Notes: generated from the sequence alone by a model not told the origin. Positions 3,321-64,000 are shown, counted from the first letter of the stretch. The stretch is DNA of 64,000 nucleotides from Proteobacteria bacterium UBA5680 (GCA_002420425.1 DIIC01000043.1:26989-90988), one strand, 5' to 3'. Numbers and translations are program-made.

Positions 3321-3376
3321 TAAAAATCCTTCAGCTCCTGGTGTCTGAACAGGGACCTGCCCAAATCAACACCTCT

Positions 3377-9251: not shown

Positions 9252-10019
9252 CTACTCTTCCTTCGCCCGATTTGCTCTTGTTTTCCTGATACCGAGAAGC
9301 GTTACAGCTGGTCCCGAGGCCAAATAGCCAAAAGAGAGCATAAAAAGAACAACCGGAGGATCAAATGAGATCAACATAAATACGAAGACAAGTACGATAA
9401 GGGCCATAAAAGGAACCTTTCCCCTGGCATCAAACTCCTTAAAACTGCGATATCTCAGATTACTCACCATTGCCAGGCCTGAAGAAACAGTCAGGACGAG
9501 TGCAAACCACCCCATTGTCTTGTCACTCCAATCTATATCGGTACCAAGCCAAACGAAAGTGGCGATTACAGCGGCGGCGGCTGGACAGGGCAGCCCCTGA
9601 AAATAGCGTTTGTCTTTTGCCGGTTGCACATTAAACCGGGCGAGGCGCAATGCCGTTGTTGAGACATAGAGAAAAGCACAGAGCCAGCCAATCTTGCCAA
9701 AGCCAAAGAGGGCCCACTGATAAACCACCAGTGCCGGAGTCAAACCAAATGCAACCACATCCGCCAGGCTGTCATACTCTTTTCCAAAATCACTCGCAGT
9801 ATTGGTCAATCTGGCAACCCGCCCATCCAGACCATCCATGACGAGGGCGATAAGAATGGCAATTGCGGCTACCGAAAAATCTCCATGAATAGCCCGGATG
9901 ACCGCATAGAAAGCGGCAAACAGCGTTGCAGTGGTGAACAGGTTGGGAAGAATATAGATTCCCCGCCGTCGGCCCTTTTTCTGGCCGACCGGAGTTTCTG
10001 GATTGGGTGGCATAGTCAT
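9252..10019 (-). CDS. pssA: CDP-diacylglycerol--serine O-phosphatidyltransferase
   Basis: CDP-alcohol phosphatidyltransferase motif DGLDGRVARLTNTASDFGKEYDSLADVV in a polytopic protein. Confidence 0.9.
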   Translation of the reverse strand: MTMPPNPETPVGQKKGRRRGIYILPNLFTTATLFAAFYAVIRAIHGDFSVAAIAILIALVMDGLDGRVARLTNTASDFGKEYDSLADVVAFGLTPALVVYQWALFGFGKIGWLCAFLYVSTTALRLARFNVQPAKDKRYFQGLPCPAAAAVIATFVWLGTDIDWSDKTMGWFALVLTVSSGLAMVSNLRYRSFKEFDARGKVPFMALIVLVFVFMLISFDPPVVLFMLSFGYLASGPAVTLLGIRKTRANRAKEE

Positions 10020-10046
10020 CAGCAGTTTAAGTCAGAAAAATACCCT

Positions 10047-10700
10047 CTAAATGGATTGAGGCAGGAGTGCAATGATATCACTCCCAGAATAAACCGTGTC
10101 ACCCAGAGAAACCTCGGCCTGAGCACCGAACGGGAGATAGAGATCTACTCTGGAACCGAATCGAATAAAACCATAACGGTCACCGGCTCTCAGTTGATCG
10201 CCGACAGACGAATAACATAATATCCGACGGGCAATCAGACCGGCAATCTGGACAAAAACCACATCACGTCCATTCTCATCCTCGACCCAAACTGCATTTC
10301 TTTCATTCTCCTTTGAGGCCTTATCAAGAACAGCATTAAAGAATTTGCCTGAGTGGTACCAGATCTCTTTTACTCTGCCTCCAACTGGAGTACGATTGGC
10401 ATGAACCGAAAAGACATTCATGAAAATGCTGATTTTGAATGCTTTACGAGAGAGAAAAGGGTCTTCGGCCTCACCCAGAAAGACTACTTTTCCATCTGCT
10501 GGGGCAATGACACCATTTTCAATATCAGGAATGTCTCTATGAGGATCCCGAAAGAACTGAACAACAAAGCCCAGGATCAGCCAAAACGGAGCCGCCATCC
10601 ATGGGCCCGATAACCAATGGACCATTACTGCAAGAAGCAGTGCCAGAAGGCAATGCACCCAACCCTCTCGCGCCAGCAGAATACGTCCTGGGAGTGCCAT
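10047..10700 (-). CDS. psd: phosphatidylserine decarboxylase proenzyme (short form)
   Basis: Self-cleavage region FIRFGSRVDLYLP and an N-terminal membrane anchor. It is adjacent to pssA. Confidence 0.85.
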   Translation of the reverse strand: MALPGRILLAREGWVHCLLALLLAVMVHWLSGPWMAAPFWLILGFVVQFFRDPHRDIPDIENGVIAPADGKVVFLGEAEDPFLSRKAFKISIFMNVFSVHANRTPVGGRVKEIWYHSGKFFNAVLDKASKENERNAVWVEDENGRDVVFVQIAGLIARRILCYSSVGDQLRAGDRYGFIRFGSRVDLYLPFGAQAEVSLGDTVYSGSDIIALLPQSI

Positions 10701-10724
10701 CGGGATGAGGCAATCTACAAAAAA

Positions 10725-11756
<1,032 letters not shown>

Positions 11757-11855
11757 TTAGTTGCAGGAAAATTAATCCTGCGTCAATAATTAAATGGAAC
11801 CCTGATACCTGTGTGCGCTTCTGCTGCTCAATTAATGCTGCCAACGCCAATTCCA

Positions 11856-12347
11856 CTAAACGCGAAGGGATCGATCCCCCCGAGCCACACCAGAAACCCC
11901 TGATCGGACAACTTCAATTATTTCAGTTATCCCAAGAGCACTGATAAATGCATTCAATTTCTCACTTGTCCCTGTCATCTCTATGATGTATTGCGCCTGA
12001 CCCACATCCAGGATGCGTCCACGGAAAATATCAACAATACGTTTCACCTCTTCCCTGGATTCACCAACCGCCTGAACCTTGACCAACATCAGTTCTCGCT
12101 CAATATGGGAGCCCTCTGTCAGATCCATCAGGCGCACAACATCTACCAGCTTGTTCAGTTGTTTGGTTATCTGTTCGATGACTGAGTCGGCCCCTGATGT
12201 TACCAGAGTCAGGCGTGAGAGCGTTTCATCCTCTGTTGGGGCTACTGACAACGACTCAATATTGTAGCCTCTGGCAGAGAAGAGGCCAGCCACCCTCGAC
12301 AGGGCACCAGGTTCATTTTCCATCAGTATGGAGATGATATGTTTCAT
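11856..12347 (-). CDS. ilvH: acetolactate synthase small (regulatory) subunit
   Basis: ACT domain ILMENEPGALSRVAGLFSARGYNIESLSV. It lies directly downstream of the large subunit. Confidence 0.9.
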   Translation of the reverse strand: MKHIISILMENEPGALSRVAGLFSARGYNIESLSVAPTEDETLSRLTLVTSGADSVIEQITKQLNKLVDVVRLMDLTEGSHIERELMLVKVQAVGESREEVKRIVDIFRGRILDVGQAQYIIEMTGTSEKLNAFISALGITEIIEVVRSGVSGVARGDRSLRV

Positions 12348-12350
12348 AAC

Positions 12351-14084
12351 TCAGGCAAGCTCCCTTTCTTCAGGAATATCTCCAGTACCCGGACTGAGAT
12401 ACATCTCGTTGTGTCCTCCACCTGCAGCAATCATCGGGTAGACATTCTCAGATTGATCGACAATGAAATCGAGGAAATAGAGTTGGCTTCTATCCTGGAT
12501 AGCCTGAAGAAGTGCGCCTTCAACATCACCCGGTTTTTCTATTCTGATGCCCACATGGCCGAAGCTCTCCGCCAAAGAGACAAAATCCGGTAGTGCATCC
12601 ATATAGGAGTGTGAATACCGGCTATCATAGAAAAACTCCTGCCACTGTCGGACCATTCCCATATAGCGATTATTGAGACAGATGAGATTGAGAGGCAGAT
12701 CGAATTGACGACAGGTAGAGAGTTCCTGAATACACATCATGATACTGGCCTCTCCGGTGACACATGCAACCGTTGAGTCCGGATGTGCCAGTTGAACTCC
12801 AATTGCGGCAGGGAGGCCAAAGCCCATCGTTCCAAGACCGCCAGAATTGATCCATCTGCGGGGTTTGTCAAAAAGATAGTGCTGAGCAGTAAACATCTGA
12901 TGTTGTCCAACATCAGATGTGACGAAGGCATCGCCGCCCGTTATCTCACAAAGCTTCTCTACCACAAACTGGGGCTTGATCTGATCACTTGCCCGATCAT
13001 AGCTCAGTGAGTCTTTCTCCCTCCAGGCGTCAATCTGCTTCCACCAGGTAGCAAGGTCATTTGCTTCTGGCTTATCTCCGCGCTGTTTAATCCCCTTTAT
13101 GATCTCTTGTATCACTGTTTTGACATGACCGACAATAGGAACATCAACAGCTACATTTTTTCCTATCGAAGAGGGGTCAATATCGACATGAATAATTTTT
13201 GCGTAGGGAGAGAATTTTGAAACTTCGGCTGTAACCCGATCATCAAATCGGGCGCCTAGCGCCAATAAGACATCGCATTCATGCATTGCCATATTGGATT
13301 CGTAAGTTCCATGCATCCCCAGCATGCCGAGAAATTGTTGATCTGTTGCCGGATAGCCACCCAGTCCCATCAGGGTGCTGGTGCAGGGGTAACCAAGCAT
13401 ACGCACCAGTTCTATCAACTCCTGATGGGCATTGGCCTGAATAATTCCACCACCAAAATAGATTATCGGTCGTTTTGCTGACAGCAGGAGATCCAGAGCA
13501 CGTCTGATCTGTTTTGGATGGCCCTTGTCCCTGGGCGCATAGGAACGCATGGTTATTGATTCAGGATAGAAAAATTCAGTTTTTTCCGCAGTGATGTCCT
13601 TTGGTATATCAATCAATACAGGCCCAGGACGACCTGTTGAAGCAATGTGGAATGCTTTTTTTATTGCCAATGCCACCTGGTCAATATCCTTTACCAGAAT
13701 ATTGTGTTTTACACAGGGACGGGTAATTCCTACTGCATCAACCTCCTGGAAGGCATCATCACCGATGAGTTGTTTGGGGACCTGAGCAGAGAGCACGACG
13801 AGCGGGATAGAATCCATATAGGCTGTGGCAATACCCGTCACTGTATTGGTTACCCCAGGGCCTGAAGTCACGACGACCACCCCTGGTTTTCCAGTTGCCC
13901 GTGCATAACCGTCAGCCGCATGAGTGGCCCCCTGTTCATGTCGGGTCAATACATGCCTTATCTGCTTCTGATGATAGATTGCATCATAGATATGCAACGC
14001 TGCACCTCCTGGATAACCGAAGATCGTATCAATCCCCTCTTCCTGAAGACAGCGAACTAAAATTTCTGCACCCGACAATTTCAC
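12351..14084 (-). CDS. ilvI: acetolactate synthase large subunit
   Basis: ThDP-binding GGLGTMGFGLPAAIG ... NNRYMGMVRQWQ. GTG start with an AAGAGG SD. Confidence 0.95.
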   Translation of the reverse strand: MKLSGAEILVRCLQEEGIDTIFGYPGGAALHIYDAIYHQKQIRHVLTRHEQGATHAADGYARATGKPGVVVVTSGPGVTNTVTGIATAYMDSIPLVVLSAQVPKQLIGDDAFQEVDAVGITRPCVKHNILVKDIDQVALAIKKAFHIASTGRPGPVLIDIPKDITAEKTEFFYPESITMRSYAPRDKGHPKQIRRALDLLLSAKRPIIYFGGGIIQANAHQELIELVRMLGYPCTSTLMGLGGYPATDQQFLGMLGMHGTYESNMAMHECDVLLALGARFDDRVTAEVSKFSPYAKIIHVDIDPSSIGKNVAVDVPIVGHVKTVIQEIIKGIKQRGDKPEANDLATWWKQIDAWREKDSLSYDRASDQIKPQFVVEKLCEITGGDAFVTSDVGQHQMFTAQHYLFDKPRRWINSGGLGTMGFGLPAAIGVQLAHPDSTVACVTGEASIMMCIQELSTCRQFDLPLNLICLNNRYMGMVRQWQEFFYDSRYSHSYMDALPDFVSLAESFGHVGIRIEKPGDVEGALLQAIQDRSQLYFLDFIVDQSENVYPMIAAGGGHNEMYLSPGTGDIPEERELA

Positions 14085-14157
14085 AGATTTTTACCTCTTG
14101 ATCGTTTCTTCCACCGCCCTCTTCGGGACTGATGAAACGAGTAAAAAATGGCGATGT

Positions 14158-14186
14158 AGTATAAACATCGGAGAGGTGTGTGGCAA
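14158..14186 (-). promoter_or_regulatory. candidate sigma70 promoter for ilvIH-ilvC
   Basis: Minus-sense TTGCCA-17 nt-TATACT, with the -35 at 14186..14181 and the -10 at 14163..14158. It lies about 75 nt upstream of the ilvI GTG. I found no leader ORF here. Confidence 0.35.
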
Positions 14187-14221
14187 AGTGCAATCAGGCC
14201 CAAATTCTGATCAAATCCAGC

Positions 14222-15634
14222 CTAGGCGAGTCGCCAGCGTGTAGAGCCGTCCGGCGCGTCCTCAAGGAGGATCCCCCTGCTCAGCAGGTCATCACGGATA
14301 AGATCCGCTTTCTGCCAATCGCGGTCAGCTCTGGCCTGGTTTCGATCAGCCACCAGCTGATCAATTTCAGCTCCATCCACCGCCCCCTCAGCAGCACCCT
14401 CAGAACCCAAAAACCGACCGGGATCCTGCTGTAGGATCCCAAGAAGCGCCCCGAGTGACTTAAGTTCATTTGCGGCACTTTTTGCCTCTCCTCTGCGACC
14501 ATCATCAATCGCCCGATTGACCTCTCTAACCAGCTCGAACAGTGCGGCAAGGGCGCCCGGAGTATTGAAGTCATCTGACATTGCCTGATGAAACTGGCCA
14601 GGTATATCGGCGGCAAGAGATCCTACACTCTCTTTTCTTTGAGTTTTTTCCAGTGCCAGATAGAGTCGGGTTAATGCCGATTTTGCACTTTTTAGTGCGG
14701 AATCAGAAAAATTGAGTGGGCTCCGATAGTGACTTCCAAGAATCATGTAGCGGATTACCTCACCCATCCGCTCCTGGTCATTATCAGTCTTGAGAATTTC
14801 ACGAATAGTGAAGAAGTTGCCTAACGATTTCGACATCTTCTCCTGATCAATCTGAACATAACCGTTGTGCATCCAGAGATTGACAAAATGTTCTCCGCTG
14901 GCACTTTCACTTTGTGCGATCTCATTTTCATGGTGGGGAAACTGCAAATCCATACCCCCTCCATGGATATCAAAATGGTTCCCCAGGCAGTGGGTAGACA
15001 TCGCCGAACACTCAATATGCCAGCCTGGACGTCCTTCACCCCATGGAGATTCCCAGCATGGTTCGCCCGGCTTTGCCCCTTTCCAAAGCACGAAATCAAG
15101 TGGATCCTCTTTTGAGTGATCACGCTCTACCCGTGCTCCAACCTGGAGCTGATCAATGGTTTTTCCAGAGAGCCTGCCATATTGTGGAAATTGTCGTACC
15201 CGATAGTAGACATCCCCATTTGCTGCACTGTAGGCGAAATCTCTCTCTATCAGGGTTGTAATCATCTGCAGGATCTGCCCAATATGAGCAGTTGCCCGAG
15301 GCTCGTCATCTGGAGGCAACACTCCCAGCCAGAGGCAATCTTCATGCATTGCACGAATAAAACGATCTGTTAACTGATTAAAAGGTTCTCCATTCTCAGC
15401 TGCCCGTTGAATTATTTTGTCATCAATATCGGTGATATTGCGGATATATTTTACTTTTAGTCCAGTTGCCCTTAAGTATCTGACAATGGTATCGAAGACC
15501 ACAAGAACACGGGCATGACCCAAGTGACAATAATCATAAACGGTCATCCCACAGACATAAATTCCCAGCTCACCCGCAATCCGGGGAGTCAATTTCTCTT
15601 TACGTCGAGTCAGCGTATTGTAGATTTTTATCAT
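14222..15634 (-). CDS. cysS: cysteine--tRNA ligase
   Basis: Class I signatures CHLGHAR (HIGH) and KMSKS. Confidence 0.95.
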
Positions 15635-38274: not shown

Positions 38275-39261
38275 TCATAAAACCAGATGACAGGCAACCG
38301 AGTGGCCCCGATTAACATTTCTCAGCTTTGGCCTTTCATTTATGCACCGTTCACTGACATGTGGGCATCGGGTGTGAAAAACACAACCAGAGGGTGGCGA
38401 GGTAGGTGATGGCAGGTCACCCTCAATCAGGATCAGTTCCCTTGTTTTCTCAATCTCCGGGTCAGGGATCGGTACTGCCGAAATAAGCGCCTGGGTATAA
38501 GGGTGTTGTGGCTGAGCATAGAGATCAGCACTGTCAGCCAACTCCACCATATTACCCAAATAGAGCACCAAGATCCGGGTGCTGATGTGTTTTACTACAC
38601 TCAGGTCATGGGCGATAAAGATGAGTGCAAGCTCCATCTCATCCTGGAGCTGTTTTAAAAGATTGATGACCTGTGCCTGAATTGAGACATCGAGTGCTGA
38701 AACAGGTTCATCACAAATAATCAGTTTTGGTTTGAGTATGAGCGCACGGGCAATACCGATACGCTGGCACTGCCCCCCGGAGAACTCATGGGGATAACGA
38801 TTAATAAGATTGGAGAGCAAACCCACCTTCGACATCACCTCTCTGACCGCCTCTTTTACTTCAGAGGCCGATAACGTTGGAAAATGGGTCTTCAGGGGTT
38901 CGGCTATTATCTCTCCGACCGTCATCCTTGGATTAAGACTGGCAAGAGGGTCCTGAAAAACCATCTGTATCCGTTTTCTGTGTTCCCGAAGGGCCTGTTT
39001 ATCAAGTTTTAGAAGATCACTCCCCAGAAAGACCACTTCACCCGACTCTACCGGAACCATGCGGGTGATAGCTCGTGCCAGCGTCGACTTGCCACATCCT
39101 GACTCACCCACAATGCCAAGGGTTTCGCCACCTTCCAACTCAAAGCTGACCCCATCAATGGCCTTGAGAGTATGGTGTTTTGTCCACGGCATTGCCCCCT
39201 GGGGGGAGACATTAAAATAGACCTTGAGGTCATCGATACGCATCAGCGGAGAGAGCCTCAT
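38275..39261 (-). CDS. oppF: oligopeptide ABC transporter ATP-binding protein
   Basis: Walker A GESGCGKST, signature FSGGQCQRIGIARAL, and a C-terminal oligopeptide-type extension. ATG 39261 overlaps the oppD stop (ATGA). Confidence 0.85.
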   Translation of the reverse strand: MRLSPLMRIDDLKVYFNVSPQGAMPWTKHHTLKAIDGVSFELEGGETLGIVGESGCGKSTLARAITRMVPVESGEVVFLGSDLLKLDKQALREHRKRIQMVFQDPLASLNPRMTVGEIIAEPLKTHFPTLSASEVKEAVREVMSKVGLLSNLINRYPHEFSGGQCQRIGIARALILKPKLIICDEPVSALDVSIQAQVINLLKQLQDEMELALIFIAHDLSVVKHISTRILVLYLGNMVELADSADLYAQPQHPYTQALISAVPIPDPEIEKTRELILIEGDLPSPTSPPSGCVFHTRCPHVSERCINERPKLRNVNRGHSVACHLVL

Positions 39262-40232
39262 CTTAAAGCCCCAGCTGTTGCAAAGCACGCCTTCAGGTGA
39301 CGATCATGGTGGGCCAGTGGAGTGAGCACAGGGATCGCCTCAAGACAGCGTTCACGGCAATATTGGCAGCGCTCAGAAAAAGGACACCCTTTGGGCAGCT
39401 CCATCATATTGGGGGGCGTACCGGGTATCGTTGTCAGGCTCTCGTCATCATGATCAAGACGGGGCACAGCGGTCAGCAACCCCTGGGTATAGGGGTGGGC
39501 AGGTGAGCGGTAGAGTTCACCTGTTGATGCCATCTCCATTACTCGCCCCCCATACATCACCAGGATCTCATCGCTATGACCGGCAACAACACCGAGGTCG
39601 TGGGTAATGAGGATAATTGCAGTGCCCAACTCACGCTGAATCTCTCCGAGGAGTCGCATAATCTGCGCCTGGATGGTCACATCAAGCGCTGTCGTGGGTT
39701 CATCTGCGATCAATAGTCTGGGGCGGCAGAGGAGTGACATGGCGATCATCACCCTCTGGCGCATACCCCCCGAAAACTCATGAGGATACATTCGGATACG
39801 CTCTTTTGCTGATGGGATCTTTACCGCATCAAGCATCTCAATCGAATCCCTGATGGCATCGGTTCTGCTCATCCCTTTGTGGCAGACCAACACTTCGGCC
39901 ATCTGGTCTGAGATTCGCATATAGGGGTTGAGGCTGGTCATCGGATCCTGAAAGATCATGGAGATCTTGTTGGCTCGGATACGATTCATCTCGGCATAAC
40001 TTCGCCCCAGCATCTCCTCACCCTCCATCTTTACACTGCCGCTAGCCCGGCCATTGTGTGCCAGCAACCCCATGAGGGAGAAGACTGCCTGACTCTTGCC
40101 ACTACCGCTCTCACCGACAATAGCCAAAGTGGTGCCATTATCTACTTTGAAATTGAGATCGGTGACAGCCCGAACCACCCCTTCGGGGGTATCGAATTCA
40201 ACCGAGAGGCCGGATACTTCCAGAAGGCTCAT
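39258..40232 (-). CDS. oppD: oligopeptide ABC transporter ATP-binding protein
   Basis: Walker [10 protein letters not shown] and signature [18 protein letters not shown] 40232 ([13 protein letters not shown]) is used. The track start at 40421 would overlap oppC. Confidence 0.85.
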
Positions 40233-40236
40233 GCCC

Positions 40237-41181
40237 CTACCTGTCCTTTGGATCGAGTGCATCACGCAACCCATCACCAATAAAGTAGAAACAGAACAGA
40301 GAGACGACAAAGAAGGCCAAGGGGAAGAGGAGTTGCCACTCCACCCCATATTGGATGGTTCCAGCCCCCTCCGATATGAGTGCACCCCAACTGGTATTAG
40401 GTTCCTGAACACCAAGGCCAAGAAAAGAGATAAAGCTCTCTGTCAGGATCATATTTGGTACCAGGAGGGTCGCGTAGACAACAACAACACCGAGCAGATT
40501 GGGGATGATATGCCGGAGGATGATCCGTGACCCCGGAACACCGATTGAGCGGGCAGCCTCGACAAACTCCTTGTTCTTCAGGGCCAGTGTCTGGCCTCGT
40601 ACAATACGACTCATATCGAGCCAGGAGATGAGGCCTATCCCAATGAAGAGCATGATGATAGAGCGTCCAAAAACAACCAACAGGAGGATGAGCACAAACA
40701 TGTAGGGGATTGACATCAGGATATCAACGATTCGCATCATCACCTGGTCTGTTCGCCCCCCCACGTAGCCTGAGATGGCTCCGTAGAGTGTTCCCACAAT
40801 CACAGCGATCATGGCGCCCACCACCCCCACCATGAGGGAGATCTGGGTGCCCTGCACAACACGTGCATAGAGATCACGGCCCATTTCATCCGCCCCGAAG
40901 AAGTGACCACTCTCTAGTGAGGGCTGTCCTTTCTCAGCCACCATCCCGAGGATAGCCCAGTCGATCTCCTCATTGGACCAGTCAGAGAAGTGAGCGCCCA
41001 GCAACGAAAAGAGGACTATGATCACCAGGATAGCCAGACTGGTAATAGCAGCACGGTTGAGCATAAAACGACGCCGTGCATCTCCCCAGAGGGAGCGGCC
41101 CTTTACTTCATCCAGGGTGGAGAGATGCTCGGCCATGGCTTCGACTTTTTTCTCTCCCGGAAACATTATCTTAAACCTCAA
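40237..41181 (-). CDS. oppC: oligopeptide ABC transporter permease
   Basis: OppC-type N-terminus (GRSLWGDARRRF) and a BPD_transp_1 EAA loop. The exact start is ambiguous (41181, 41166 or 41136). Confidence 0.85.
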   Translation of the reverse strand: MRFKIMFPGEKKVEAMAEHLSTLDEVKGRSLWGDARRRFMLNRAAITSLAILVIIVLFSLLGAHFSDWSNEEIDWAILGMVAEKGQPSLESGHFFGADEMGRDLYARVVQGTQISLMVGVVGAMIAVIVGTLYGAISGYVGGRTDQVMMRIVDILMSIPYMFVLILLLVVFGRSIIMLFIGIGLISWLDMSRIVRGQTLALKNKEFVEAARSIGVPGSRIILRHIIPNLLGVVVVYATLLVPNMILTESFISFLGLGVQEPNTSWGALISEGAGTIQYGVEWQLLFPLAFFVVSLFCFYFIGDGLRDALDPKDR

Positions 41182-42101
41182 TAACGAATCTTTGGGTCGA
41201 TCCAGGCGTAGAGCAGGTCAACCACAAGATTGAAGAGTATCGTCAAGGCACCAAAAAGTATGGTGATTCCCATCATCACGGAATAATCGCGATTGGTAGC
41301 CGAATTAACGAAAAAATAGCCCATCCCCCCGGTAGAAAAGTAGATATCGATGACCACAGAACCGGTAATCATGCCGACAAAAGCGGGACCAAGATAGGAG
41401 ATCACCGGCAACATTGCCGGCTTCAGGGCGTGACGCAGGATGATGGTACGGTATGGAAGCCCTTTTGCCTTGGCCGTCCGGATAAAATTGGTGTTTAGCA
41501 CCTCCAGCATGGAGGATCGAGTGATGCGGGCAATCGAGGCCATATAGCTGGTTGAGAGGGCGATCACCGGCATAACAAGATATTGCCACTCCCCACCTGA
41601 CCACCCTCCTCCGGGCAGCCACCCCAACCACAGGGTAAAGGTGATCACCAACAGGGGGGCCATCACAAAGTTGGGAAGAACCTGTGCACCAATAGTGATT
41701 CCCACTGCGATGTAGTCGATCCAGCTGTTCTGTCGAATTGCCGCAATAACCCCGAGGGAGAGGCCGACAACAACGGCAACAATAAATGAGAGGAACCCGT
41801 AAGTGAGTGTGATCGGAAACCCCTGCTCAATAATCTCGTTGACGGTACGATCCTTGTATCGAAATGAGGGACCAAAATCGAACTCGGTCAGAATGCCCCA
41901 GGTGTAGTTGACCATCTGTTGCCAGATCGGAAGATCAAGGCCGTATTTGGCTTCAATATTGGCCAGAACCTGTGGGGGCAGAGGTCGCTCAGAGGTAAAG
42001 GGGCCTCCTGGTGCAGCATGCATCAGCAGGAATGAGATTATTATCAGGATCAGCAGCGTAGGGAGTGCTATGGCAATCCGCCTGATCACATAGTTCAGCA
42101 T
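41178..42101 (-). CDS. oppB: oligopeptide ABC transporter permease
   Basis: MLNYVIRRIAIALPTLLILIIISF start and the EAA region FIRTAKAKGLPYRTIILRHALKPA. Confidence 0.85.
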   Translation of the reverse strand: MLNYVIRRIAIALPTLLILIIISFLLMHAAPGGPFTSERPLPPQVLANIEAKYGLDLPIWQQMVNYTWGILTEFDFGPSFRYKDRTVNEIIEQGFPITLTYGFLSFIVAVVVGLSLGVIAAIRQNSWIDYIAVGITIGAQVLPNFVMAPLLVITFTLWLGWLPGGGWSGGEWQYLVMPVIALSTSYMASIARITRSSMLEVLNTNFIRTAKAKGLPYRTIILRHALKPAMLPVISYLGPAFVGMITGSVVIDIYFSTGGMGYFFVNSATNRDYSVMMGITILFGALTILFNLVVDLLYAWIDPKIRY

Positions 42102-42145
42102 TGCGGAGGACCTTCTTTAGTACTCAACCGGGAGTGTACCCCGTT

Positions 42146-42184
42146 GGAAAAAGAGTCGGGGCACTACTCTGTAGCAGTGCCCCG
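42146..42184 (-). terminator. intercistronic stem-loop plus U-tract between oppA and oppB
   Basis: Minus-sense CGGGGCACUGCU-acag-AGUAGUGCCCCG forms 12 bp (one G-U pair) with a tetraloop, followed by ACUCUUUUUCC. It starts 14 nt after the oppA stop. Confidence 0.6.
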
Positions 42185-42198
42185 ATCTTAGGGTCGAA

Positions 42199-43827
42199 TT
42201 ACTCCGCTACCTTATAGAGGTTACGTGAGTACCAGTTCTGTTCCACATTGCCGAACGGCCAGCCCTTCAATGCAGTGTTCAGCATGAAGACACCCGTGTA
42301 GTGATAGACCGGGATCACCGGCATCTCCTCTGCGAGGATCTGCTCTACACGCGTATAGTTTCCGCTGGGATCGGACATGGTCTTGGCCCCCTGCATCAAC
42401 TTGTCAACCTCAGCATTATTGTATTTGCCGTCGTTGTAGCCGGACTGTGAGGTCAGCAGGTCAAGGAAGGTAGAGGCTTCGTTGTAGTCACCGCACCATG
42501 CCCCTCGAGCCAGTTCAAAGTCCTGCTTGCCACGGACATCGAGGAAGGTCTTCCACTCCATATTGGCCAACTCAATCTCAACACCCAGCTTCTGCTTCCA
42601 CATCTGGGTCATGGCGATAGCAATCTTCTTGTGACCCTCAGAAGTGTTGTAGAGCATTTTGAACTTGAGTGGGTTGTCGGAACCGTAACCCGCAGCCGCC
42701 ATCAACTCAGTCGCTTTGGCATCCCGCTGAGCCTGGGTCAGGCCGGCAAAGTCAACATCTGGAACATCAAAGTTGGCGGTTGCCGCCGGAGTAAAGGTAT
42801 AGGCCTGGAACTGACCACCCTGTAAGACATCGTCAGTGATAATGTTACGGTCAAGCGCGAATGAGAGCGCCTTTCTCACCCTTACATCCTTGAATGCCTT
42901 GGGCCCTGAATCGGAGAGGTTGAAGGTGTAGTAGTAGTTACACAGACGCGGAAAGGACTTTGCCTGGTCTGGATGCTCTTTGCTCAACCGAGGATACTGG
43001 CCGGCAGGAATTTCTGTCTTGTCGAGCTCTCCTGCTAAGTATCGGGTCAGTGCCGTATTTTCATCGTTGATGACAAGTGACACCACCTTTTCAAGAATAG
43101 TGGCTCCATTGTTCCAGTAACTTGGATTACGCTCACGCACGGACCGCTCCTGAGGAACATGCTCTGTCAGGATGTAGGCACCATTTGAGACAATATTCCC
43201 TGGTTTTGTCCACTCCTTGCCATGAGCCTTGATCGTCCAGCTCGGTGACGGGAAGGTGCTTGCATGGGTCGTCATTGCCGGGAAATAGGGCAGTGAAGCC
43301 GTCAGACGCACCTCCAAGGTATGATCATCCACTGCGCGGACGCCGAGTGTGTCGGGAGAGGCTTCCCCTTTCATTACCGGGCCCACCCCTTCGATCGACA
43401 TCAGATCGGCAAACCAGGAGTAGGGTGAAGCGGTTTCGGGATCAGCCAGTCTGCGCCAGGCAAAAACAAAATCATGAGCCGTAACCGGTTTTCCATCAGA
43501 CCACTTGGCATTATCCCGCAGGTGGAAGGTATAGACATTCTTGGCATCGTTGGTTTCAAAATGGGTCGCTACGCCGGGAACCAGTTCTCCCGCTGCATTT
43601 TGATTCATCAACCCTTCGAAGAGATCTCGAACCAGTTCAGAACCGTTCACATCTTCAACAATCTGAGGATCGACCGAACTGTGCTCATCGAGCAATCGGT
43701 AGGTGAATGTCTGATCAGCGGCCAGTGCTTCTCCGGTCACCGGATGCGTGCCCGCCGCAGAGACGGGACTTGTTGTGATTGCAGCCAAGACGATTCCTGT
43801 AGCTGCATATTTGGACAATAAATTCAT
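42199..43827 (-). CDS. oppA: periplasmic oligopeptide-binding protein (SBP family 5)
   Basis: Signal peptide MNLLSKYAATGIVLAAITTSPVSAAG and an SBP_bac_5 pattern. It is the first gene of the opp operon. Confidence 0.85.
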   Translation of the reverse strand: MNLLSKYAATGIVLAAITTSPVSAAGTHPVTGEALAADQTFTYRLLDEHSSVDPQIVEDVNGSELVRDLFEGLMNQNAAGELVPGVATHFETNDAKNVYTFHLRDNAKWSDGKPVTAHDFVFAWRRLADPETASPYSWFADLMSIEGVGPVMKGEASPDTLGVRAVDDHTLEVRLTASLPYFPAMTTHASTFPSPSWTIKAHGKEWTKPGNIVSNGAYILTEHVPQERSVRERNPSYWNNGATILEKVVSLVINDENTALTRYLAGELDKTEIPAGQYPRLSKEHPDQAKSFPRLCNYYYTFNLSDSGPKAFKDVRVRKALSFALDRNIITDDVLQGGQFQAYTFTPAATANFDVPDVDFAGLTQAQRDAKATELMAAAGYGSDNPLKFKMLYNTSEGHKKIAIAMTQMWKQKLGVEIELANMEWKTFLDVRGKQDFELARGAWCGDYNEASTFLDLLTSQSGYNDGKYNNAEVDKLMQGAKTMSDPSGNYTRVEQILAEEMPVIPVYHYTGVFMLNTALKGWPFGNVEQNWYSRNLYKVAE

Positions 43828-43958
43828 CTTCCATTTCCTCCTATAATTAAGTGTTATCTTGTTAACTCAGACTGGCTCTCTTTTTCTGGAACCTTATTTG
43901 AGCCTCCAAGACGAAAAATTAACACAACCTCTCCTTTTCCACACGAAAAATTTTACTA

Positions 43959-44297
43959 TCAGCACAACTTTGAACCCAAAGGTACTGGCCGCTCTGGCTT
44001 CGCCAGAACCACCGCACCCCCACTATCGATAAATCCAGTCACCAGAAACTCCGACATGAAAGGACCGATCTGCCGGGGAGGGAAGTTGACCACCCCTACA
44101 ATTTGGCGTCCAATCAACTCTTCTGGGGTGTAGTGGTCTGTGATCTGGGCGCTTGATTTCTTAACCCCGATCTCCTCCCCGAAGTCGGCCCATATCTTAT
44201 AAGCCGGCTTCTTGGCCTCGGGAAAAGGCTTGACGTCTGCAACCACCCCCACTCGAAGTTCAACCTGTTCAAAATCACCCCAGCTGATCTGCTTCAC
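43959..44297 (-). CDS. tRNA-binding protein (CsaA/YgjH family)
   Basis: A 112-aa OB-fold tRNA_bind pattern ([29 protein letters not shown] ... [15 protein letters not shown]). Confidence 0.8.
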
Positions 44298-44362
44298 AAT
44301 AGACTCCTTATTATAAAGTCTCTCAATATGCTCGAAATGAGATATTCTCTTCTGGGATACCT

Positions 44363-45706
<1,344 letters not shown>

Positions 45707-58817: not shown

Positions 58818-58884
58818 AACAATTTGAATAACTTAATCCTGGAGTGGTTGCACTCACCAGGGCCTCGGTGTGTGAGCGAGCGCC

Positions 58885-58910
58885 TGAACACTGAACACTG
58901 AACACTGAAT
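58885..58910. repeat. heptanucleotide tandem repeat (TGAACAC) x3 plus a partial fourth copy
   Basis: The sequence tgaacac tgaacac tgaacac tgaat is read directly, 68-93 nt upstream of the orn start on the opposite-sense strand. Confidence 0.85.
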
Positions 58911-59164
58911 CCCAACCCTGCCATCACTGCCATCCAGCGCATAGTGGAGAAACTTGTGTTAACCGTTCTGATCATCGTTGTACCTTGCAATTTCCATTAC
59001 ACATTGCACAATATCGCAGTCGAGAGAGATGAACAAATATGATTCTTTTGTCTGGCAAGTAAAAACCAGCTTACAGATCATTGCAATCGCCAACATCAAT
59101 TGCGTGTTAGTATGAAAGTCAATAACGGTAGCAAACCGAACTCGGATTCGACGCCATTTTCACT

Positions 59165-60295
59165 ATGAATAATCCTACTATTGTAATAAGCGGTACAGGC
59201 CTCTTCACCCCCGCCGAACTGATCACCAATGAAGAGTTGGTTGAGAGTTTCAATAAGTATGCTGAGCGGTTCAATTCCTCACATCACGATCAAATTGGAC
59301 GAGGGGATCTAGAAGCCATACCACTGTCGAGCGTAGAGTTTATTGAGAAGGCGTCCGGAATCACAAAACGCTACGTCATCGACAAACGGGGCATCCTCGA
59401 TCCCGAAGTGATGGCGCCACAAATAGCAGAGAGGACCAATGATCAACAGTCACTTCAGTGCGAAATATCGGTTGCCGCCGCTCAGCAGGCTCTTGAAGGT
59501 GCAAATCGTCAAGGTGGAGAGATTGATGCCGTTATTGTCGCCTGTTCAAATATGCAACGCCCCTACCCCGCTATGGCAATAGAGGTTCAGGAGGCGATTG
59601 GGGCCCAAGGATTTGCATATGATATGAACGTGGCATGTTCATCTGCCACTTTTGGCATGCAGGCCGCTTATAATGCGATTATCTCAGGCTCAGCAAGTCG
59701 GGTGTTGGTCGTCAATCCTGAGATCTGCTCAGCCCATCTGGACTGGGAAGATCGTGACTGCCACTTCATTTTCGGCGATGTCTGTACTGCGATTATTCTA
59801 GAGAGGGAGAGTGAAGCGCTCTCTGACCATCGATGGGAGATACTCGGCACCAAGCTAAGCACCCAATACTCAAACAATATTCGTAATAATTTTGGCTTCC
59901 TCAATCGCTGCGATCCTGCTGGCATTGGAAAGCCGGACAAACTCTTCAAACAGAACGGACGAAAAGTATTTAAGGAGGTCTGCCCGATGGTGGCACAGTT
60001 GATCACTGACCATCTGGGTGAGCTCAACATCAAAACTTCAGATCTCAGTCGAATGTGGTTACACCAAGCGAACCTGTCGATGAACAGACTGATCTCAAAA
60101 AAAGTGCTGGGAAAAGAGCCAACGGAACAAGAGGCTCCTGTCATCCTCAACCACTATGCAAACACGAGTTCTGCTGGATCCATCATCGCCTTTCATCTCT
60201 ATAATGCTGATCTCAAGAATGGAGATCTCGGGATAATCTGCTCCTTTGGTGCGGGGTACTCAATCGGGAGTATTATTATAAAAAAACAGATGTAA
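59165..60295 (+). CDS. beta-ketoacyl-ACP synthase III family protein (long, ~375-aa subgroup)
   Basis: KAS III catalytic triad context: NVACSSATFG (Cys), WLHQANLSMN (His) and YANTSSAGSI (Asn). The N-terminus, VISGTGLFTPAELITNEELVESFN, is typical of the long FabH-like subgroup. Confidence 0.8.
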   Translation: MNNPTIVISGTGLFTPAELITNEELVESFNKYAERFNSSHHDQIGRGDLEAIPLSSVEFIEKASGITKRYVIDKRGILDPEVMAPQIAERTNDQQSLQCEISVAAAQQALEGANRQGGEIDAVIVACSNMQRPYPAMAIEVQEAIGAQGFAYDMNVACSSATFGMQAAYNAIISGSASRVLVVNPEICSAHLDWEDRDCHFIFGDVCTAIILERESEALSDHRWEILGTKLSTQYSNNIRNNFGFLNRCDPAGIGKPDKLFKQNGRKVFKEVCPMVAQLITDHLGELNIKTSDLSRMWLHQANLSMNRLISKKVLGKEPTEQEAPVILNHYANTSSAGSIIAFHLYNADLKNGDLGIICSFGAGYSIGSIIIKKQM

Positions 60296-60437
60296 TCTGA
60301 GTAAGGCGGCGGCCTTGCGGATCGTTCGCTCCAACACCGACTGTGTTATCAACAGAAAATCCTGAGTGCTTCCAGGCCAGGAGCCGGTGGGCAAACTCCT
60401 CGGTGATGGCTTCGTCTTCAACCAGGTAATCCAGTAC
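60296..60437 (-). mobile_element. relic fragment of an IS91-family (Y2/HUH rolling-circle) transposase gene
   Basis: The minus-strand frame gives VLDYLVEDEAITEEFAHRLLAWKHSGFSVDNTVGVGANDPQGRRLTQIT. From memory, the W(K/R)HSGFSV..N core and flanking pattern match the central region of IS91-type transposases. The fragment is truncated on both sides by the convergent flanking genes. The track ORF 60260..60442 is in a different frame. Confidence 0.5.
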
Positions 60438-60447
60438 TGCATGAATT

Positions 60448-61065
60448 TTAATAGAGATACTTACTCAGTTCCAACCGAAACACAGTAAATACCAGCAGGA
60501 ACAGGATCATTTCTGCCACTGTGACCACATACAAGATATAGGTAATACGACGTGCCATCGGTTTCATCGGCTGCCATATTTTGCGCATATACCATGGCCA
60601 GCCGGGAACCCATGACCAGCGCTTCCATCGATGCAGGTAGCCGTGCAGGTCGTTTCCCCAATTGACCAGGCTTTTGTCCACCTCATCGATACGCTGTTCG
60701 CGTTCACTCGCCGGGGTTCCAGAATAGTCGTCAGTGACGATCAGTCTGGAGTTGCCGTCGTCCTTTGGTTCAACATGGAAACTGGTAGAAGTGCGCAGGC
60801 CCTGCTGGTAGCTAACCTTGATACCATCATCCGAGCTATCTATGCTGAGCGCTGATTCCAGCAGCCTGCCATTGCTCAGATTTTTTAATTTAAAGCTAAA
60901 TTCTTTGTCGTTAATTAACTGCCAGCTATCAAACACCAGCATCGAATTGATTCGATATAAGCGTTCTATATCGTCCAGAAATGCGCGTAATTCTTTGGTA
61001 TTAAAAGGTGTATCGATACTGACCCAGGCAGAATCTTCATTGTCTGGAACGGAGCTTTCACTCAT
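60448..61065 (-). CDS. hypothetical protein: START/SRPBCC-like soluble domain with a C-terminal Trp-rich segment and TM anchor
   Basis: A 205-aa protein. The secondary-structure pattern (beta, a long helix NTKELRAFLDDIERLYRI, a beta-rich middle, then a C-terminal helix) suggests an SRPBCC fold. This is followed by WKRWSWVPGWPWYMRKIW and the TM helix ITYILYVVTVAEMILFLLVFTVF. I recognise no family motif. Confidence 0.5.
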   Translation of the reverse strand: MSESSVPDNEDSAWVSIDTPFNTKELRAFLDDIERLYRINSMLVFDSWQLINDKEFSFKLKNLSNGRLLESALSIDSSDDGIKVSYQQGLRTSTSFHVEPKDDGNSRLIVTDDYSGTPASEREQRIDEVDKSLVNWGNDLHGYLHRWKRWSWVPGWPWYMRKIWQPMKPMARRITYILYVVTVAEMILFLLVFTVFRLELSKYLY

Positions 61066-61529
61066 GGTTTCGGGTAAGGAACTACTATCAATGACATGGT
61101 CAGCGAGCGAGCCAACAGCTCCAGATCCATGCGTGAGCGATAACCCTCAACGCCTTTGGGTCGCGGTGAACCAATAACAGCTAGACCAAAATCATCCTGC
61201 CCGGCAACATCTAACAAACAGATCGCCGGTTTGCCCAGGCGCACCGTGTTCGAGTAATTAATACCAGCCTGATCACAGGCTTGTGTCATACGCTCCAGTT
61301 CAGCTGCGGCTTCTTGCGCCAACTGACTTTCCACATAGTTGCCAAATCGAATCTGGGTAACTGCGTTATTGAGCCAGTCGTCCCCCATCATTCCTTTCCA
61401 GAAATCCGGCACCACCAGAAGCTGGTGCAGGCTGGCGCCTTTTTCGACACATAAATCGATAGCTGCCAGCTCGGCTGCGCGGGCACCATCCGTACCGTGA
61501 CTGGCAAGAATTATTTTTTTAACTTTCAA
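61062..61529 (-). CDS. universal stress protein family (adenine nucleotide alpha-hydrolase-like) protein
   Basis: USP-like layout (KKIILASHGTDGA ... LAVIGSPRP ... SLIVVP). The canonical G-2x-G-9x-G(S/T) ATP motif is not obvious. TTG start. It shares an ATGA overlap with the downstream 205-aa gene. Confidence 0.6.
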   Translation of the reverse strand: MKVKKIILASHGTDGARAAELAAIDLCVEKGASLHQLLVVPDFWKGMMGDDWLNNAVTQIRFGNYVESQLAQEAAAELERMTQACDQAGINYSNTVRLGKPAICLLDVAGQDDFGLAVIGSPRPKGVEGYRSRMDLELLARSLTMSLIVVPYPKP

Positions 61530-61570
61530 GGAATACTGTTAACGCTGAACACCCGTCGGGTGAATTCAGA

Positions 61571-61606
61571 AAATAAAAAAACCTGGCGCCCATTAAGAGC
61601 GCCAGG
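61571..61606 (-). terminator. rho-independent terminator
   Basis: Minus-sense CCUGGCGC-ucuuaaugg-GCGCCAGG is followed by UUUUUUUAUUU. It lies 22 nt after the stop of the 56-aa ORF. Confidence 0.8.
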
Positions 61607-61628
61607 TGCACTGGATGTGCTACACAGT

Positions 61629-61799
61629 CTATGGGACCATAATGTAAACGCCAAGGGCTATTGCCATCGCTGCTAGCAGCGCGATAAAATCCTCGGCACG
61701 GTCACTGTGGAATATTGACAATGCGGAGCCGCGATGGAACTTGGCATCCGCTTCTTCTTGCAGGTCGGTGTCCTGCGAATCATGTTGTTGATCTGTCAT
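61629..61799 (-). CDS. 56-aa tail-anchored miniprotein (acidic N-terminus, single C-terminal TM helix)
   Basis: ATG 61799 is preceded by GGGGGA at a 7-nt spacing, 12 nt after the transporter stop. Translation: MTDQQHDSQDTDLQEEADAKFHRGSALSIFHSDRAEDFIALLAAMAIALGVYIMVP. A terminator follows. It is below the ORF-track length cutoff. Confidence 0.5.
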   Translation of the reverse strand: MTDQQHDSQDTDLQEEADAKFHRGSALSIFHSDRAEDFIALLAAMAIALGVYIMVP

Positions 61800-61813
61800 T
61801 TCTCGATCCCCCG

Positions 61814-63376
61814 TTAAATAGTTTCACTGACAAAAAATAATATCACAATCAGTGACAGCACCGCCTTAGTCGTTCCGACGATACCGCCGATTACAAGCGG
61901 TTGGCCGCCAGCCTGTTTCATCGATGCAAAAGTTATTTGCATACCAAGACCGGTTAAACCAAATGCAAACAACAGAGTAATCCACTGCCTGAATTTGCTG
62001 ATCTTCTTGGCGGTGTGCCTAACTGCCTTTGTCGCCCCTTTAAGCACTTTGTTGGCGTCCTTGGAGAGGACCTTAGCATTATAGATACCGCGGATAACAG
62101 TCTCATCGTCGATGGTCATAACCTTGCGGTTATCAAGCATGCGTTTGAGCGCCTGCTTGCGGTCGTCTCTTTGCAGTTTGCCCATTTCAGAGCTGACCGC
62201 TGAGATCTGATCATCCTTTAGCAACATCGATTGCTTGACGTTATTGTCGAAATACTTGCCCTTGTAATGCTGCGCAGGCGCAAAAACACCAGTAGATGAC
62301 AACGCGAACATGAGGATAAAGCCCAGCACGAATACTGGAAATTTTTCGAATATCACGGCTCCGACGTTAACCTGTTGGGTAGTTTCTCCACCCTCCTGTT
62401 TAACGTACCAGACTGCTAACCATAAAACGATTATCGGCAAGAACAGCACACGCGTAATATTGAATATCTCGGCTACCTTGAGCGTCTCGATGCCGTCTGG
62501 CTGATACGCTAATGCCGCACCAGCGACCTGCGCAGAATTCAATATACCGGTACCGGCCCAGGCACCAAATTGAATATGACCCAGATCCAGTATATGCCCG
62601 ATAACCGGGAACAGGAACATACAGCCGACACCCCAGATAAGAATGGTACCAATGGTATAGGCGATTTCGACAGCCTTGGCCTGCACTACCGGGGCCGCTG
62701 CAACCGACGCGGACACACCGCAGACACCCATACCGGCTGAAAGAACACCGCCCATGGAACTTGGGATATTACGCCGCTTACCCAGAAACAGTACCAACCC
62801 CACCGAACCCAGTACAAAAAAGCCAACCATAATAGCGGATAGCTTACCGAGTGACTGGAGTTCCGCCAGACTGTACAAAGTACCGAGCAGGATAACACCG
62901 GTTTTCAGGCCAAATCGCGACAGACGAACACCGTTTTCGGCCCACTCAGGGATCTTGAAAACATTAACGATGATGATACCGGCGACTATACCCAGTACGA
63001 CATAATTGAGTCCGAGCACCTGATGCAGGTATTTAGCGCCCATCACCGGCCCCAGGCCAGTACTAATCAAAGCAACCAATGGCGCCAGATACCAGCGAAC
63101 CAGCATCGCCACCAGCAGGATAAATATCGCGCCAGCAACTGTGGACATGTAGTAGTCTAAATTACCTTCTTCATGACTACCAGCCAAGTGCCAGAGCCCG
63201 ACAACAACGGCAACTGCACCAAAGGCGTAGCCCATACCTACCATTTCACCGGCATATTTACCGGCCTTCAGGTAATCGATCAATCCTGATATACCGCCTG
63301 AATCAGCGAGATAAGCAATTGCCACAAAAATAATACCCATAATCAACAAGGCAGGATGCTTTTTTGTATATACCAT
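61814..63376 (-). CDS. YeiH/UPF0324 ('putative sulfate exporter') family membrane protein, enlarged variant (520 aa)
   Basis: It is collinear with E. coli YeiH blocks (SAGMGVCGVSASVAAAPVVQAK, GAWAGTGILNSAQVAGAA, FGLTGLGMQITFASMKQAGGQPL). It also has about 125 extra N-terminal residues with TM helices and a ~95-aa Lys-rich hydrophilic insert. ATG 63376 has an AGGAGG SD, and the track start at 63457 is an over-extension. Confidence 0.75.
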   Translation of the reverse strand: MVYTKKHPALLIMGIIFVAIAYLADSGGISGLIDYLKAGKYAGEMVGMGYAFGAVAVVVGLWHLAGSHEEGNLDYYMSTVAGAIFILLVAMLVRWYLAPLVALISTGLGPVMGAKYLHQVLGLNYVVLGIVAGIIIVNVFKIPEWAENGVRLSRFGLKTGVILLGTLYSLAELQSLGKLSAIMVGFFVLGSVGLVLFLGKRRNIPSSMGGVLSAGMGVCGVSASVAAAPVVQAKAVEIAYTIGTILIWGVGCMFLFPVIGHILDLGHIQFGAWAGTGILNSAQVAGAALAYQPDGIETLKVAEIFNITRVLFLPIIVLWLAVWYVKQEGGETTQQVNVGAVIFEKFPVFVLGFILMFALSSTGVFAPAQHYKGKYFDNNVKQSMLLKDDQISAVSSEMGKLQRDDRKQALKRMLDNRKVMTIDDETVIRGIYNAKVLSKDANKVLKGATKAVRHTAKKISKFRQWITLLFAFGLTGLGMQITFASMKQAGGQPLVIGGIVGTTKAVLSLIVILFFVSETI

Positions 63377-63760
63377 ATTTCCTCCTAGACTATTTATTTT
63401 TTCTGTACGTTTACTGAGTAGTGAAAAGACAGTTATCGAAGTTCTTATCCATGCCACACCAGCCCAAATAGTGCCTGATGGTAACCAGACTATACTCTCC
63501 GTAAATAGAAAAAACGAGGTCAGGGGTGGTGTTAATCCCTACTAACTGTAAGTAATTAAAAAATAAGCAATTTATTCAATGCCAGTCCGCTCTGCGGGTC
63601 AAAAATAACTCAAGATGAGGCAGGGTTTGCTTGAAGAGCGGGCCTGGTAAACAAGTTCCATTCTGATTGGACTATTCGGCATTACAATCTGAAAAAGGCA
63701 AAGTAAATATCTGTCTGACAATTTTATTACCTGGTTGAAGATATTGTTGTGCACAGTCCA

Positions 63761-64000
63761 TCATGAACTAACTATTATTGGTTCCACTTCTTGTCTGCCC
63801 TGAATCAGCGCTGAACCCGCCTCCAGTGCTCTCAAACTTATCTCTGCTATCGCCGGTTTTTGGAATGCTGTTATCGCTTCGGCGAATGCATCTAGATTAA
63901 TAATATCGGAGTCTTTCACGAGTGCTGCCAGAGCTAAGATGCCAATAGATAGACGATTAACTTTCTTAGCAGTAGCAATTAACGGTAACCGAATAATTTC
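63761..64000 (-). CDS. 3' end (79 codons) of a gene resembling the gamma (POR) domain of 2-oxoacid:ferredoxin / indolepyruvate oxidoreductases; partial
   Basis: The frame is open from the window edge to TGA at 63763..63761. The sequence ...RLPLIATAKKVNRLSIGILALAALVKDSDIINLDAFAEAITAFQKPAIAEISLRALEAGSALI... resembles the POR-domain C-terminus (N..mLGA...l...e.l.eai...f....N..A...G). Confidence 0.4.
   Translation of the reverse strand, partial: EIIRLPLIATAKKVNRLSIGILALAALVKDSDIINLDAFAEAITAFQKPAIAEISLRALEAGSALIQGRQEVEPIIVSS

Follow-up and report, generated by a model that had tools for sequence, protein, structure and literature searches.

Does the right-hand end of this stretch of DNA belong to the chromosome in which it lies? 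The window, by which we mean the whole 64,000-nucleotide stretch from Proteobacteria bacterium UBA5680 (GCA_002420425.1, DIIC01000043.1:26989-90988), has close to its right end a cassette of four genes, one of them coding for a membrane transporter of the YeiH family, to the right of a KAS III gene. An earlier sequence-only reading proposed that this segment, 60296-64000, is compositionally distinct and was acquired horizontally. We put at about 85% the probability that it forms part of a mosaic, horizontally acquired island of ~6.3 kb, which was inserted between the 3' ends of the KAS III gene and recR and was assembled from parts cut out of larger units. Its host, a marine gammaproteobacterium, is abundant and uncultured; the sources label the host's metagenome-assembled genomes (MAGs) Arenicellales, and earlier labelled them Acidiferrobacteraceae. 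Other contigs are designated by L and a number, and the features are collected in Table 1.

Codon usage was compared between the four cassette genes (60448-63376, pooled) and the 54 genes to their left. The cassette genes favour GGT for Gly (0.49, against 0.27 in the core genes), CTG and TTA for Leu (0.45 against 0.28, and 0.11 against 0.05) and CGC or CGT for Arg (0.68 against 0.36), and make less use of CTT and CTC for Leu (0.21 against 0.50). The switch in codon preference that had been read by eye is thus borne out by the pooled frequencies. A G-test on the synonymous codons of these genes gives G = 152 (41 degrees of freedom, p ~1e-14) and ranks first among 65 sliding gene blocks; the top block outside the island reaches 126, and a random-codon null gives 42 +/- 9. 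In a leave-one-out log-likelihood scoring, each of the four cassette genes scores above every core gene. The strand-symmetric tetranucleotide distance, which is independent of gene calls and includes non-coding DNA, leads to the same place: the top 8 of 141 3-kb windows all lie within 60001-66500 (z 2.7-4.0; next best 1.46), and the anomaly ends at the boundaries of the empty site described below. The segment is therefore foreign in composition, singled out by both the codon test and the tetranucleotide scan.

Two public contigs found by exact-protein look-up (L002 and L003) are identical to the window across 12.2 kb and add 9.4 kb rightward. This gives an extended contig of 73 kb, to which coordinates above 64000 refer. 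On it the island runs from 60296 to ~66571, with the convergent KAS III (stop at 60295) and recR (stop at 66572) genes on either side, so that it does continue past the window edge, as had been expected. Its right-hand part codes for the fused beta/gamma subunit and the alpha subunit of a 2-oxoacid:ferredoxin oxidoreductase (POR) and ends with a 64-codon open reading frame (ORF), beyond which the gene order is recR, ybaB, dnaX. The fusion has TPP_enzyme_C and POR domains and the alpha subunit matches NF006412 (417 bits, cut-off 411); no gene for a delta (ferredoxin) subunit was found within the island.

Among other RecR proteins the nearest, at 90% identity, belongs to a sister species with ~80% nucleotide identity. 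Contigs of the sister have the gene order dnaX-ybaB-recR-KAS III-(small ORF)-orn-queG-nnrD-tsaE-amiB-mutL-miaA-hfq. Orthologues at the same locus in relatives had been named as evidence that would speak against acquisition; what the sister has at this locus is recR adjoining KAS III. In blastn alignments of the two lineages the flanks are 79-80% identical, and ~165-184 nt of the sister stand opposite ~6.3 kb here (60286-66583). The sister's recR-KAS III spacer has no residual homology to the island ends. Core proteins of the two species are 78-95% identical, and the codon usage of the sister's genes agrees with that of the window core (r 0.96). The alignment gap spans both the cassette and the POR genes, in agreement with the tetranucleotide boundaries; the whole island is therefore ~6.3 kb long and larger than the segment first proposed, and it is mosaic.

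The joint between the two main pieces can be placed to the base. Bases 60450-63646 align at 86% nucleotide identity to the nearest cassette (L103), and the alignment ends within the last 11 codons of the anti-sigma gene of L103; a relic of this gene placed at the protein level as far as 63682 was corrected to 63646 by nucleotide alignments. Bases 63647-66343 align to POR genes in L107 (96%) and L111/L112 (87%), with homology stopping at 63647. In those genomes, which differ in composition, the two POR genes lie between a DHO_dh+4Fe-4S gene and RidA-like/EthD genes. Another genome matches POR at 85% identity and MetG at only 59%. The spacer 63377-63760, described earlier as AT-rich, indeed has a GC content of ~0.39 (measured over 63377-63765). 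Since the cassette and POR alignments meet at 63646/63647, it is a fusion joint consisting of the POR-ridA intergenic remnant, the anti-sigma tail and the cassette promoter, and not as a regulatory oddity.

A number of observations weigh against acquisition. GC content, which had been suggested as a check, shows no contrast (0.47-0.50 in the island and ~0.50 elsewhere). No integrase or intact transposase was found at the island ends and no tRNA within 22 kb; nor are there repeats, direct or inverted, at the ends of the island, of the 3.4-kb unit or of the variable segment described below (three end pairs). The evidence for an IS91-family element is a single short fragment with modest E-values. 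MAG taxon labels are fallible, in that some 'Rhodospirillales' entries fall in clusters of the host species itself; the taxonomy of cassette-bearing contigs is taken from source labels together with composition. The sister's empty site is established for the recR-KAS III locus and in one sister lineage only, and insertion is polarised against deletion mainly by composition, relics and synonymous divergence (dS). The next relative (RecR 76% identical) has unrelated genes beyond recR and so is uninformative on the ancestral state. Finally, the preference for GGT and CTG is partly present also in cassette copies elsewhere relative to their own hosts, and the bias is therefore partly gene-intrinsic.

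The last three of these points would suit vertical inheritance, in which the genes are ancestral here, were deleted in the sister, and owe their odd codons to expression or to membrane-protein composition. We consider this very unlikely. The gene hfq, which is normally highly expressed and serves as an expression control, has core-like codon usage, and the tetranucleotide anomaly is strand-symmetric, extends into non-coding DNA and ends where the empty site does. The cassette fits the codon usage of genes flanking its copies in L103, L090 and L086 (G 39, 66 and 71) far better than size-matched samples of its own genome (G 106, 124 and 139). Pieces were cut from larger units, as the truncated anti-sigma gene and the remnant of the POR operon show, and the slot is polymorphic within the species. 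The closest cassette homologues are in unrelated genomes and contexts and are more similar than the core genes: dS between the window and L103 cassettes spans 0.12-0.73 (the three longer genes: 0.40-0.73) and is lower than the 0.85-1.05 found between the core genes of the window and the sister. Beyond the sister species RecR identity is at most 76%, whereas homologues of the transporter at 75-92% identity fill more than 100 distinct clusters, several of them from MAGs labelled Rhodospirillales or Kiloniellales. Horizontal acquisition, as first proposed, is thus supported by composition, by the sister's empty site and by a strain-variable slot.

This variability is seen directly in a conspecific contig, L106 (flanks 98.6% identical), which has a 5.3-kb ABC-transporter cassette in place of 60306-63789. 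The replacement breakpoints, 60305 and 63790, agree almost exactly with the interval that had been picked out from composition. L106 carries here (9721-14441) a four-gene ABC uptake system, made up of an ATPase, two permeases and a binding protein, and a DUF1868/2H-phosphodiesterase-like gene; this replacement is also compositionally foreign. At the C-terminus of its POR beta/gamma protein the last 10 codons are exchanged for 5 others (448 aa vs 453 aa). Between two strains with the window arrangement (L001 and the window), the cassette is 99.9% identical, the flanks 98.9-99.3% and POR 96.7%. The POR divergence of 3.3%, together with the 96% copy in the compositionally different L107, suggests exchange of POR alleles or recurrent transfer.

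The cassette is also found at a second site in the same species. A 3.4-kb unit, with the IS91 relic, the anti-sigma tail and 60 nt of flanking POR-operon sequence inside it, occurs either at this locus (site A) or next to mnhE, ~6-9 kb to the left of the window start (site B). On the 127.9-kb contig of L106 the four-gene unit lies ~70 kb from the slot, at site B (L192). There its neighbours are mnhE and a compositionally native sensor-kinase/sigma-54-regulator pair, and the same holds on five further long contigs. In window-type contigs site B is empty and the two-component genes are absent from it as well. By comparison of L192 (10759-15635) with L196 (~3722-3727), site B differs by the cassette, the sensor kinase (984 aa) and the sigma-54 response regulator (443 aa).

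The presence of an identical unit at site B in about eight of the long contigs examined, beside HisKA/sigma-54 regulator genes of native codon usage (r 0.93, G 49.5), could be taken to mean that the cassette is native at site B and was merely shifted to site A, with no transfer from outside. This is improbable, because the unit is compositionally foreign at either site and is a truncated derivative of a six-gene module that is intact only in other genomes. In addition, the site-B unit carries the POR-operon flank and adjoins 45-53 nt of the POR beta/gamma gene in inverted orientation, and therefore derives from a POR-linked arrangement and not the other way round. Relocation did happen, on top of an earlier acquisition, and there has been at least one further move of the unit within the species.

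Given the metagenomic source, and inconsistent MAG labels (Acidiferrobacteraceae, Arenicellales, stray Rhodospirillales or Nitrospinae), the island might be thought a chimeric join made in assembly or binning. We give this almost no weight. The arrangement with both junctions recurs in independent ENA, JGI, NCBI and Logan assemblies, and three assemblies compared base by base differ from the window by at most 2 bases over 12.2 kb; the transporter protein is indexed in 193 blocks of the collection and the 205-aa protein of the cassette in 424.

How an acquired mosaic of this kind was put together can be sketched. A 2.7-kb fragment with the two POR genes was excised from a preA-like/por/ridA-like cluster, and a 3.2-kb fragment from the six-gene module, so cut that the last 11 codons of the anti-sigma gene came with it. 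Because the cut lies inside that gene, the cassette keeps an ECF-type promoter and its internal terminator and lacks the regulators. A third piece, at the KAS III edge, is a ~130-nt fragment of an IS91-family transposase gene. Assembly and delivery may have been by IS91-type rolling-circle capture or by illegitimate recombination; a direct part for IS91 in the process we put at well below even odds.

The IS91 relic reported from the sequence is real, and tiny. It matches the L(L/M)xW(K/H)HSGF(S/N)V region of two IS91-family transposases, which contains the conserved WxHSGF motif, with tblastn E-values of 7e-5 and 1.5e-4 against the 8.2-kb stretch 59000-67200, and it is the top match for both queries in the 73-kb contig. 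The relic peptide has no Pfam or NCBIfam match, and tblastn against plasmids at E up to 0.01 returned nothing; in a relaxed plasmid search nearly all the weak matches listed fall under IS91/transposase annotations or in unannotated DNA. There is no start, no catalytic (zinc-binding, HUH/Y2) domain and no element end, and stops occur in the neighbouring frames. Since the relic is hemmed in between the last stop codon of the cassette and a junction 10 nt from the KAS III stop, there is no room for oriIS or terIS ends. The absence of target duplications at the island ends is compatible with IS91-type mobilisation. Both chromosomal copies of the unit share identical truncations of the relic, which was thus already dead at the unit's last move and did not itself catalyse the latest moves; these needed a trans-acting enzyme or plain recombination. 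A second candidate relic in the spacer (63614-63755, E 0.17) was rejected, the stretch being the POR-ridA intergenic remnant and the anti-sigma tail. No IS91 similarity was found in the other cassette-bearing genomes checked (L103 and L105 excluded).

Table 1. Coordinates of the island features; positions above 64000 are those of the extended contig.
Feature	Coordinates	Strand	Basis or remarks
Strain-variable segment	60306-63789		blastn of L106 vs extended contig; 98.6% homology breaks at 60305 and 63790
3.4-kb unit at two alternative sites	60308-63706	minus	L192, L187, L188 align at 98.9-99.4%
IS91-family (rolling-circle, Y2) transposase gene relic	60312-60443	minus	tblastn; ~41 codons, internal fragment
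205-aa membrane protein gene, predicted START fold	60448-61065	minus	AlphaFold2 model and Foldseek
155-aa universal-stress-protein-like gene	61062-61529	minus	PF00582
Intrinsic terminator	61607-61581	minus	11-bp stem, 8 GC pairs, T7 tail
56-aa microprotein gene	61629-61799	minus	ORF; present in every cassette copy
520-aa YeiH/PSE-family membrane transporter gene	61814-63376	minus	PF03601
ECF-sigma-type promoter-like motif GGGATTAAC-N13-TCGTT	63539-63513	minus	136 nt upstream of transporter start
Anti-sigma-factor gene remnant (last 11 codons and stop)	63611-63646	minus	Homology to L103
POR-operon intergenic remnant (after POR beta/gamma; upstream of RidA-like gene elsewhere)	63647-63760	minus	Homology to L107, L111/L112
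POR fused beta/gamma subunit gene	63761-65122 (in window 63761-64000, the 3' end)	minus	Pfam POR domain
POR alpha subunit gene	65119-66243	minus	On contigs identical to window
64-codon ORF	to 66559		Right of POR alpha

The cassette genes are intact, and purifying selection acts on them. Between the window and L103 their dN/dS (the ratio of non-synonymous to synonymous divergence) is 0.08-0.27, from which it is concluded that they are functional. The transporter (dN/dS 0.08) matches PF03601 over residues 112-369 with 152.4 bits (cut-off 24.5) and falls below the cut-off of TIGR00698 (71.6 vs 232.6 bits). It has a ~110-aa N-terminal extension and a ~90-aa hydrophilic insert, and belongs to a divergent, longer subfamily of the YeiH/PSE proteins. 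Its homologues are annotated as 'putative sulfate exporter family transporter'. An AlphaFold model of the transporter, made from a shallow alignment, was too poor to use (pLDDT 52.8).

The microprotein gene starts 14 nt after the transporter gene, with a GGGGGA ribosome-binding site; both this site and the AGGAGG site noted earlier are present. The protein has an acidic N-terminus and one C-terminal membrane helix, and is 92-93% identical in L103, L090 and L086. The protein resembling universal stress proteins (Usp) makes a marginal match to PF00582 (27 bits, cut-off 24) and has no NCBIfam match; its dN/dS is 0.11-0.14. Its start codon (61527-61529) is TTG in the window and ATG in the six other aligned cassette copies, a single A-to-T change.

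The 205-aa protein (dN/dS 0.08-0.15) has no Pfam or NCBIfam match at E below 0.1, and all of its 324 homologues are annotated 'hypothetical'. Its AlphaFold2 model (pLDDT 85.4) has a beta-alpha-alpha-beta6-alpha layout, a helix-grip fold. In the prediction the START/SRPBCC (Bet v 1-like) fold makes up the N-terminal part and is followed by an amphipathic helix and, at the C-terminus, a membrane helix. A Foldseek search of the PDB gave START, PR-10 and polyketide-cyclase matches at E 3e-6 to 1e-4. There were 111 matches at E <=1e-3, and the 50 listed are all START, PR-10, cyclase or related helix-grip structures of unknown function.

The terminator separates the transporter-microprotein pair from the usp-START pair, and its hairpin is kept in 7 of 7 aligned copies, with compensatory changes from CCTGG/CCAGG to CCCGG/CCGGG. 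It had been called the only textbook terminator; it is indeed strong, and the 73 kb hold a second strong one on the minus strand, at 42185-42156. No terminator was found between the POR genes and the transporter. The promoter-like motif, in the form GGGAATAAA-N13-TCGTT, occurs 123-136 nt before the transporter ATG in the window and in L090, L092, L094, L103 and L105, and has one other match only in the 73 kb; its support is this sequence pattern. The cassette here may be driven by this orphan ECF promoter or by read-through from POR. By analogy with its relatives, it could encode a stress-inducible exporter of sulfite- or sulfate-type anions with accessory proteins. An Rfam search of 60000-64000 (E up to 1) gave no match, and neither did the PADLOC defence models.

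In other organisms the four cassette genes are preceded by genes for an extracytoplasmic-function (ECF) sigma factor and a 264-280-aa anti-sigma-like protein. This six-gene module was found at ten loci in nine distinct contexts, with unrelated neighbourhoods (purL, holC-pepA, deaD/ectoine genes, CoA-transferase genes and others), and the regulator pair is present in 9 of the 9 non-conspecific copies for which the upstream region was recovered. The sigma factor matches TIGR02937, and the anti-sigma-like protein has a weak anti-sigma N-terminus. No adjacent ECF sigma and anti-sigma genes were found in the 73-kb contig, which has only the 36-nt anti-sigma tail. In L088, a high-GC genome, the cassette has adopted the host's GC content at third codon positions (GC3), a sign that it has been resident there for a long time. 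In L090 the 3' part of a DUF1304 gene occurs in two diverged copies (3126-3359 and 8281-8535), one on each side of the complete module, the pattern expected from an insertion that duplicates the end of its target. In L094 (13597-13798), a gene coding for a P4-type integrase arm-binding domain (PF13356) begins ~650 nt downstream of the module.

Some further observations concern the neighbourhood. A second compositional outlier lies at 39258-45676 (core 40237-43827), with a GC3 of 0.60-0.62 against ~0.49 and G = 126 for 40237-43827; the second strong terminator falls within it, and the genes at 38275-40421 have weak similarity to ABC-transporter ATPases. The KAS III gene (59165-60295) is of the NCBIfam PRK07515 type. 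A search of genome contigs with it gave matches of at most 69% identity, none with orn, recR or island genes within 10 kb; in 80 of 80 other genomes (homologues at 60-69%) it is linked to neither orn nor recR, and its position here is lineage-specific. Between KAS III and orn the sister has an extra ORF of 144-166 aa, of no clear family and with no counterpart in the window lineage. Unaligned DNA in this interval (58818-59164 in the window, 4029-4729 in L096) amounts to 584 nt in the sister and 230 nt in the window. Proteins of the host species at >=90% identity also carry the MAG labels Nitrospinae/Nitrospinota and Rhodospirillales, which points to mis-binned public contigs.

Flexible genomic islands, of the replacement and the additive kind, occur at conserved hot spots in marine bacterial populations. 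The present island resembles them in occupying a slot between core genes, in having alternative foreign cassettes in co-occurring strains, and in its sharp breakpoints without an integrase. It differs in being very small (3.5-6.3 kb), in having transporter cassettes as its fillings and not glycosylation or defence genes, and in that one of the alternative fillings also has a second, relocated position in the same genome. It is an ordinary kind of small flexible island, unusually well documented. Rolling-circle elements of the IS91/ISCR type co-mobilise adjacent genes by one-ended transposition. As with these, the fragment of the transposase gene lies directly beside the captured cassette and points the same way, and target-site duplications are absent; unlike them, only ~41 codons are left, without the HUH/Y2 region.

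The transporter shares its PF03601 membrane domain with Salmonella YeiH, which gives resistance to sulfite stress and is regulated by YeiE (PMC12880088), and with BP2808 of Bordetella pertussis (bioRxiv 10.64898/2026.04.22.720190). Within the family, sulfite tolerance or the export of sulfur oxyanions is known for these two proteins only. Those proteins have ~350 aa, whereas the present one has 520 aa with its N-terminal extension and hydrophilic insert, and is always accompanied by the microprotein, the Usp-like protein and the START-fold membrane protein. YeiH has a LysR regulator, whereas the relatives of the present transporter elsewhere are controlled by an ECF sigma/anti-sigma pair. In this the cassette is like the stress operons governed by an ECF sigma and a transmembrane anti-sigma factor, with a GGAAT-N17-CGTT-type motif before the transporter and the regulator pair in front of the cassette elsewhere. 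It is unlike them in that the pair is missing at both sites in the host species, where 36 nt of the anti-sigma gene are left.

Small flexible islands are a way in which uncultured ocean bacteria vary between strains, and here public sequences let one follow the full anatomy of such an island: an unoccupied site, one slot with two different fillings, another location for the same unit, and joints exact to the base. A preprint (bioRxiv 10.64898/2026.04.01.715867) describes the host's order as including a group predicted to act in marine sulfur cycling. The island draws attention to a very highly conserved six-gene module of unknown function around a YeiH-family transporter, and this module and the site-hopping, regulator-less unit are the parts most worth further work. 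A tentative idea, which we think has perhaps something in it but would not bet on, is that the module is an uncharacterised, stress-responsive system for export, widely exchanged among marine Alpha- and Gammaproteobacteria, and that its promoter-bearing, regulator-less 3.4-kb derivative shifts as a cassette from one chromosomal site to another in a single abundant ocean species, with no mobility gene of its own. If this is true, it would imply a trans-acting or recombination-based mechanism of cassette shuffling.

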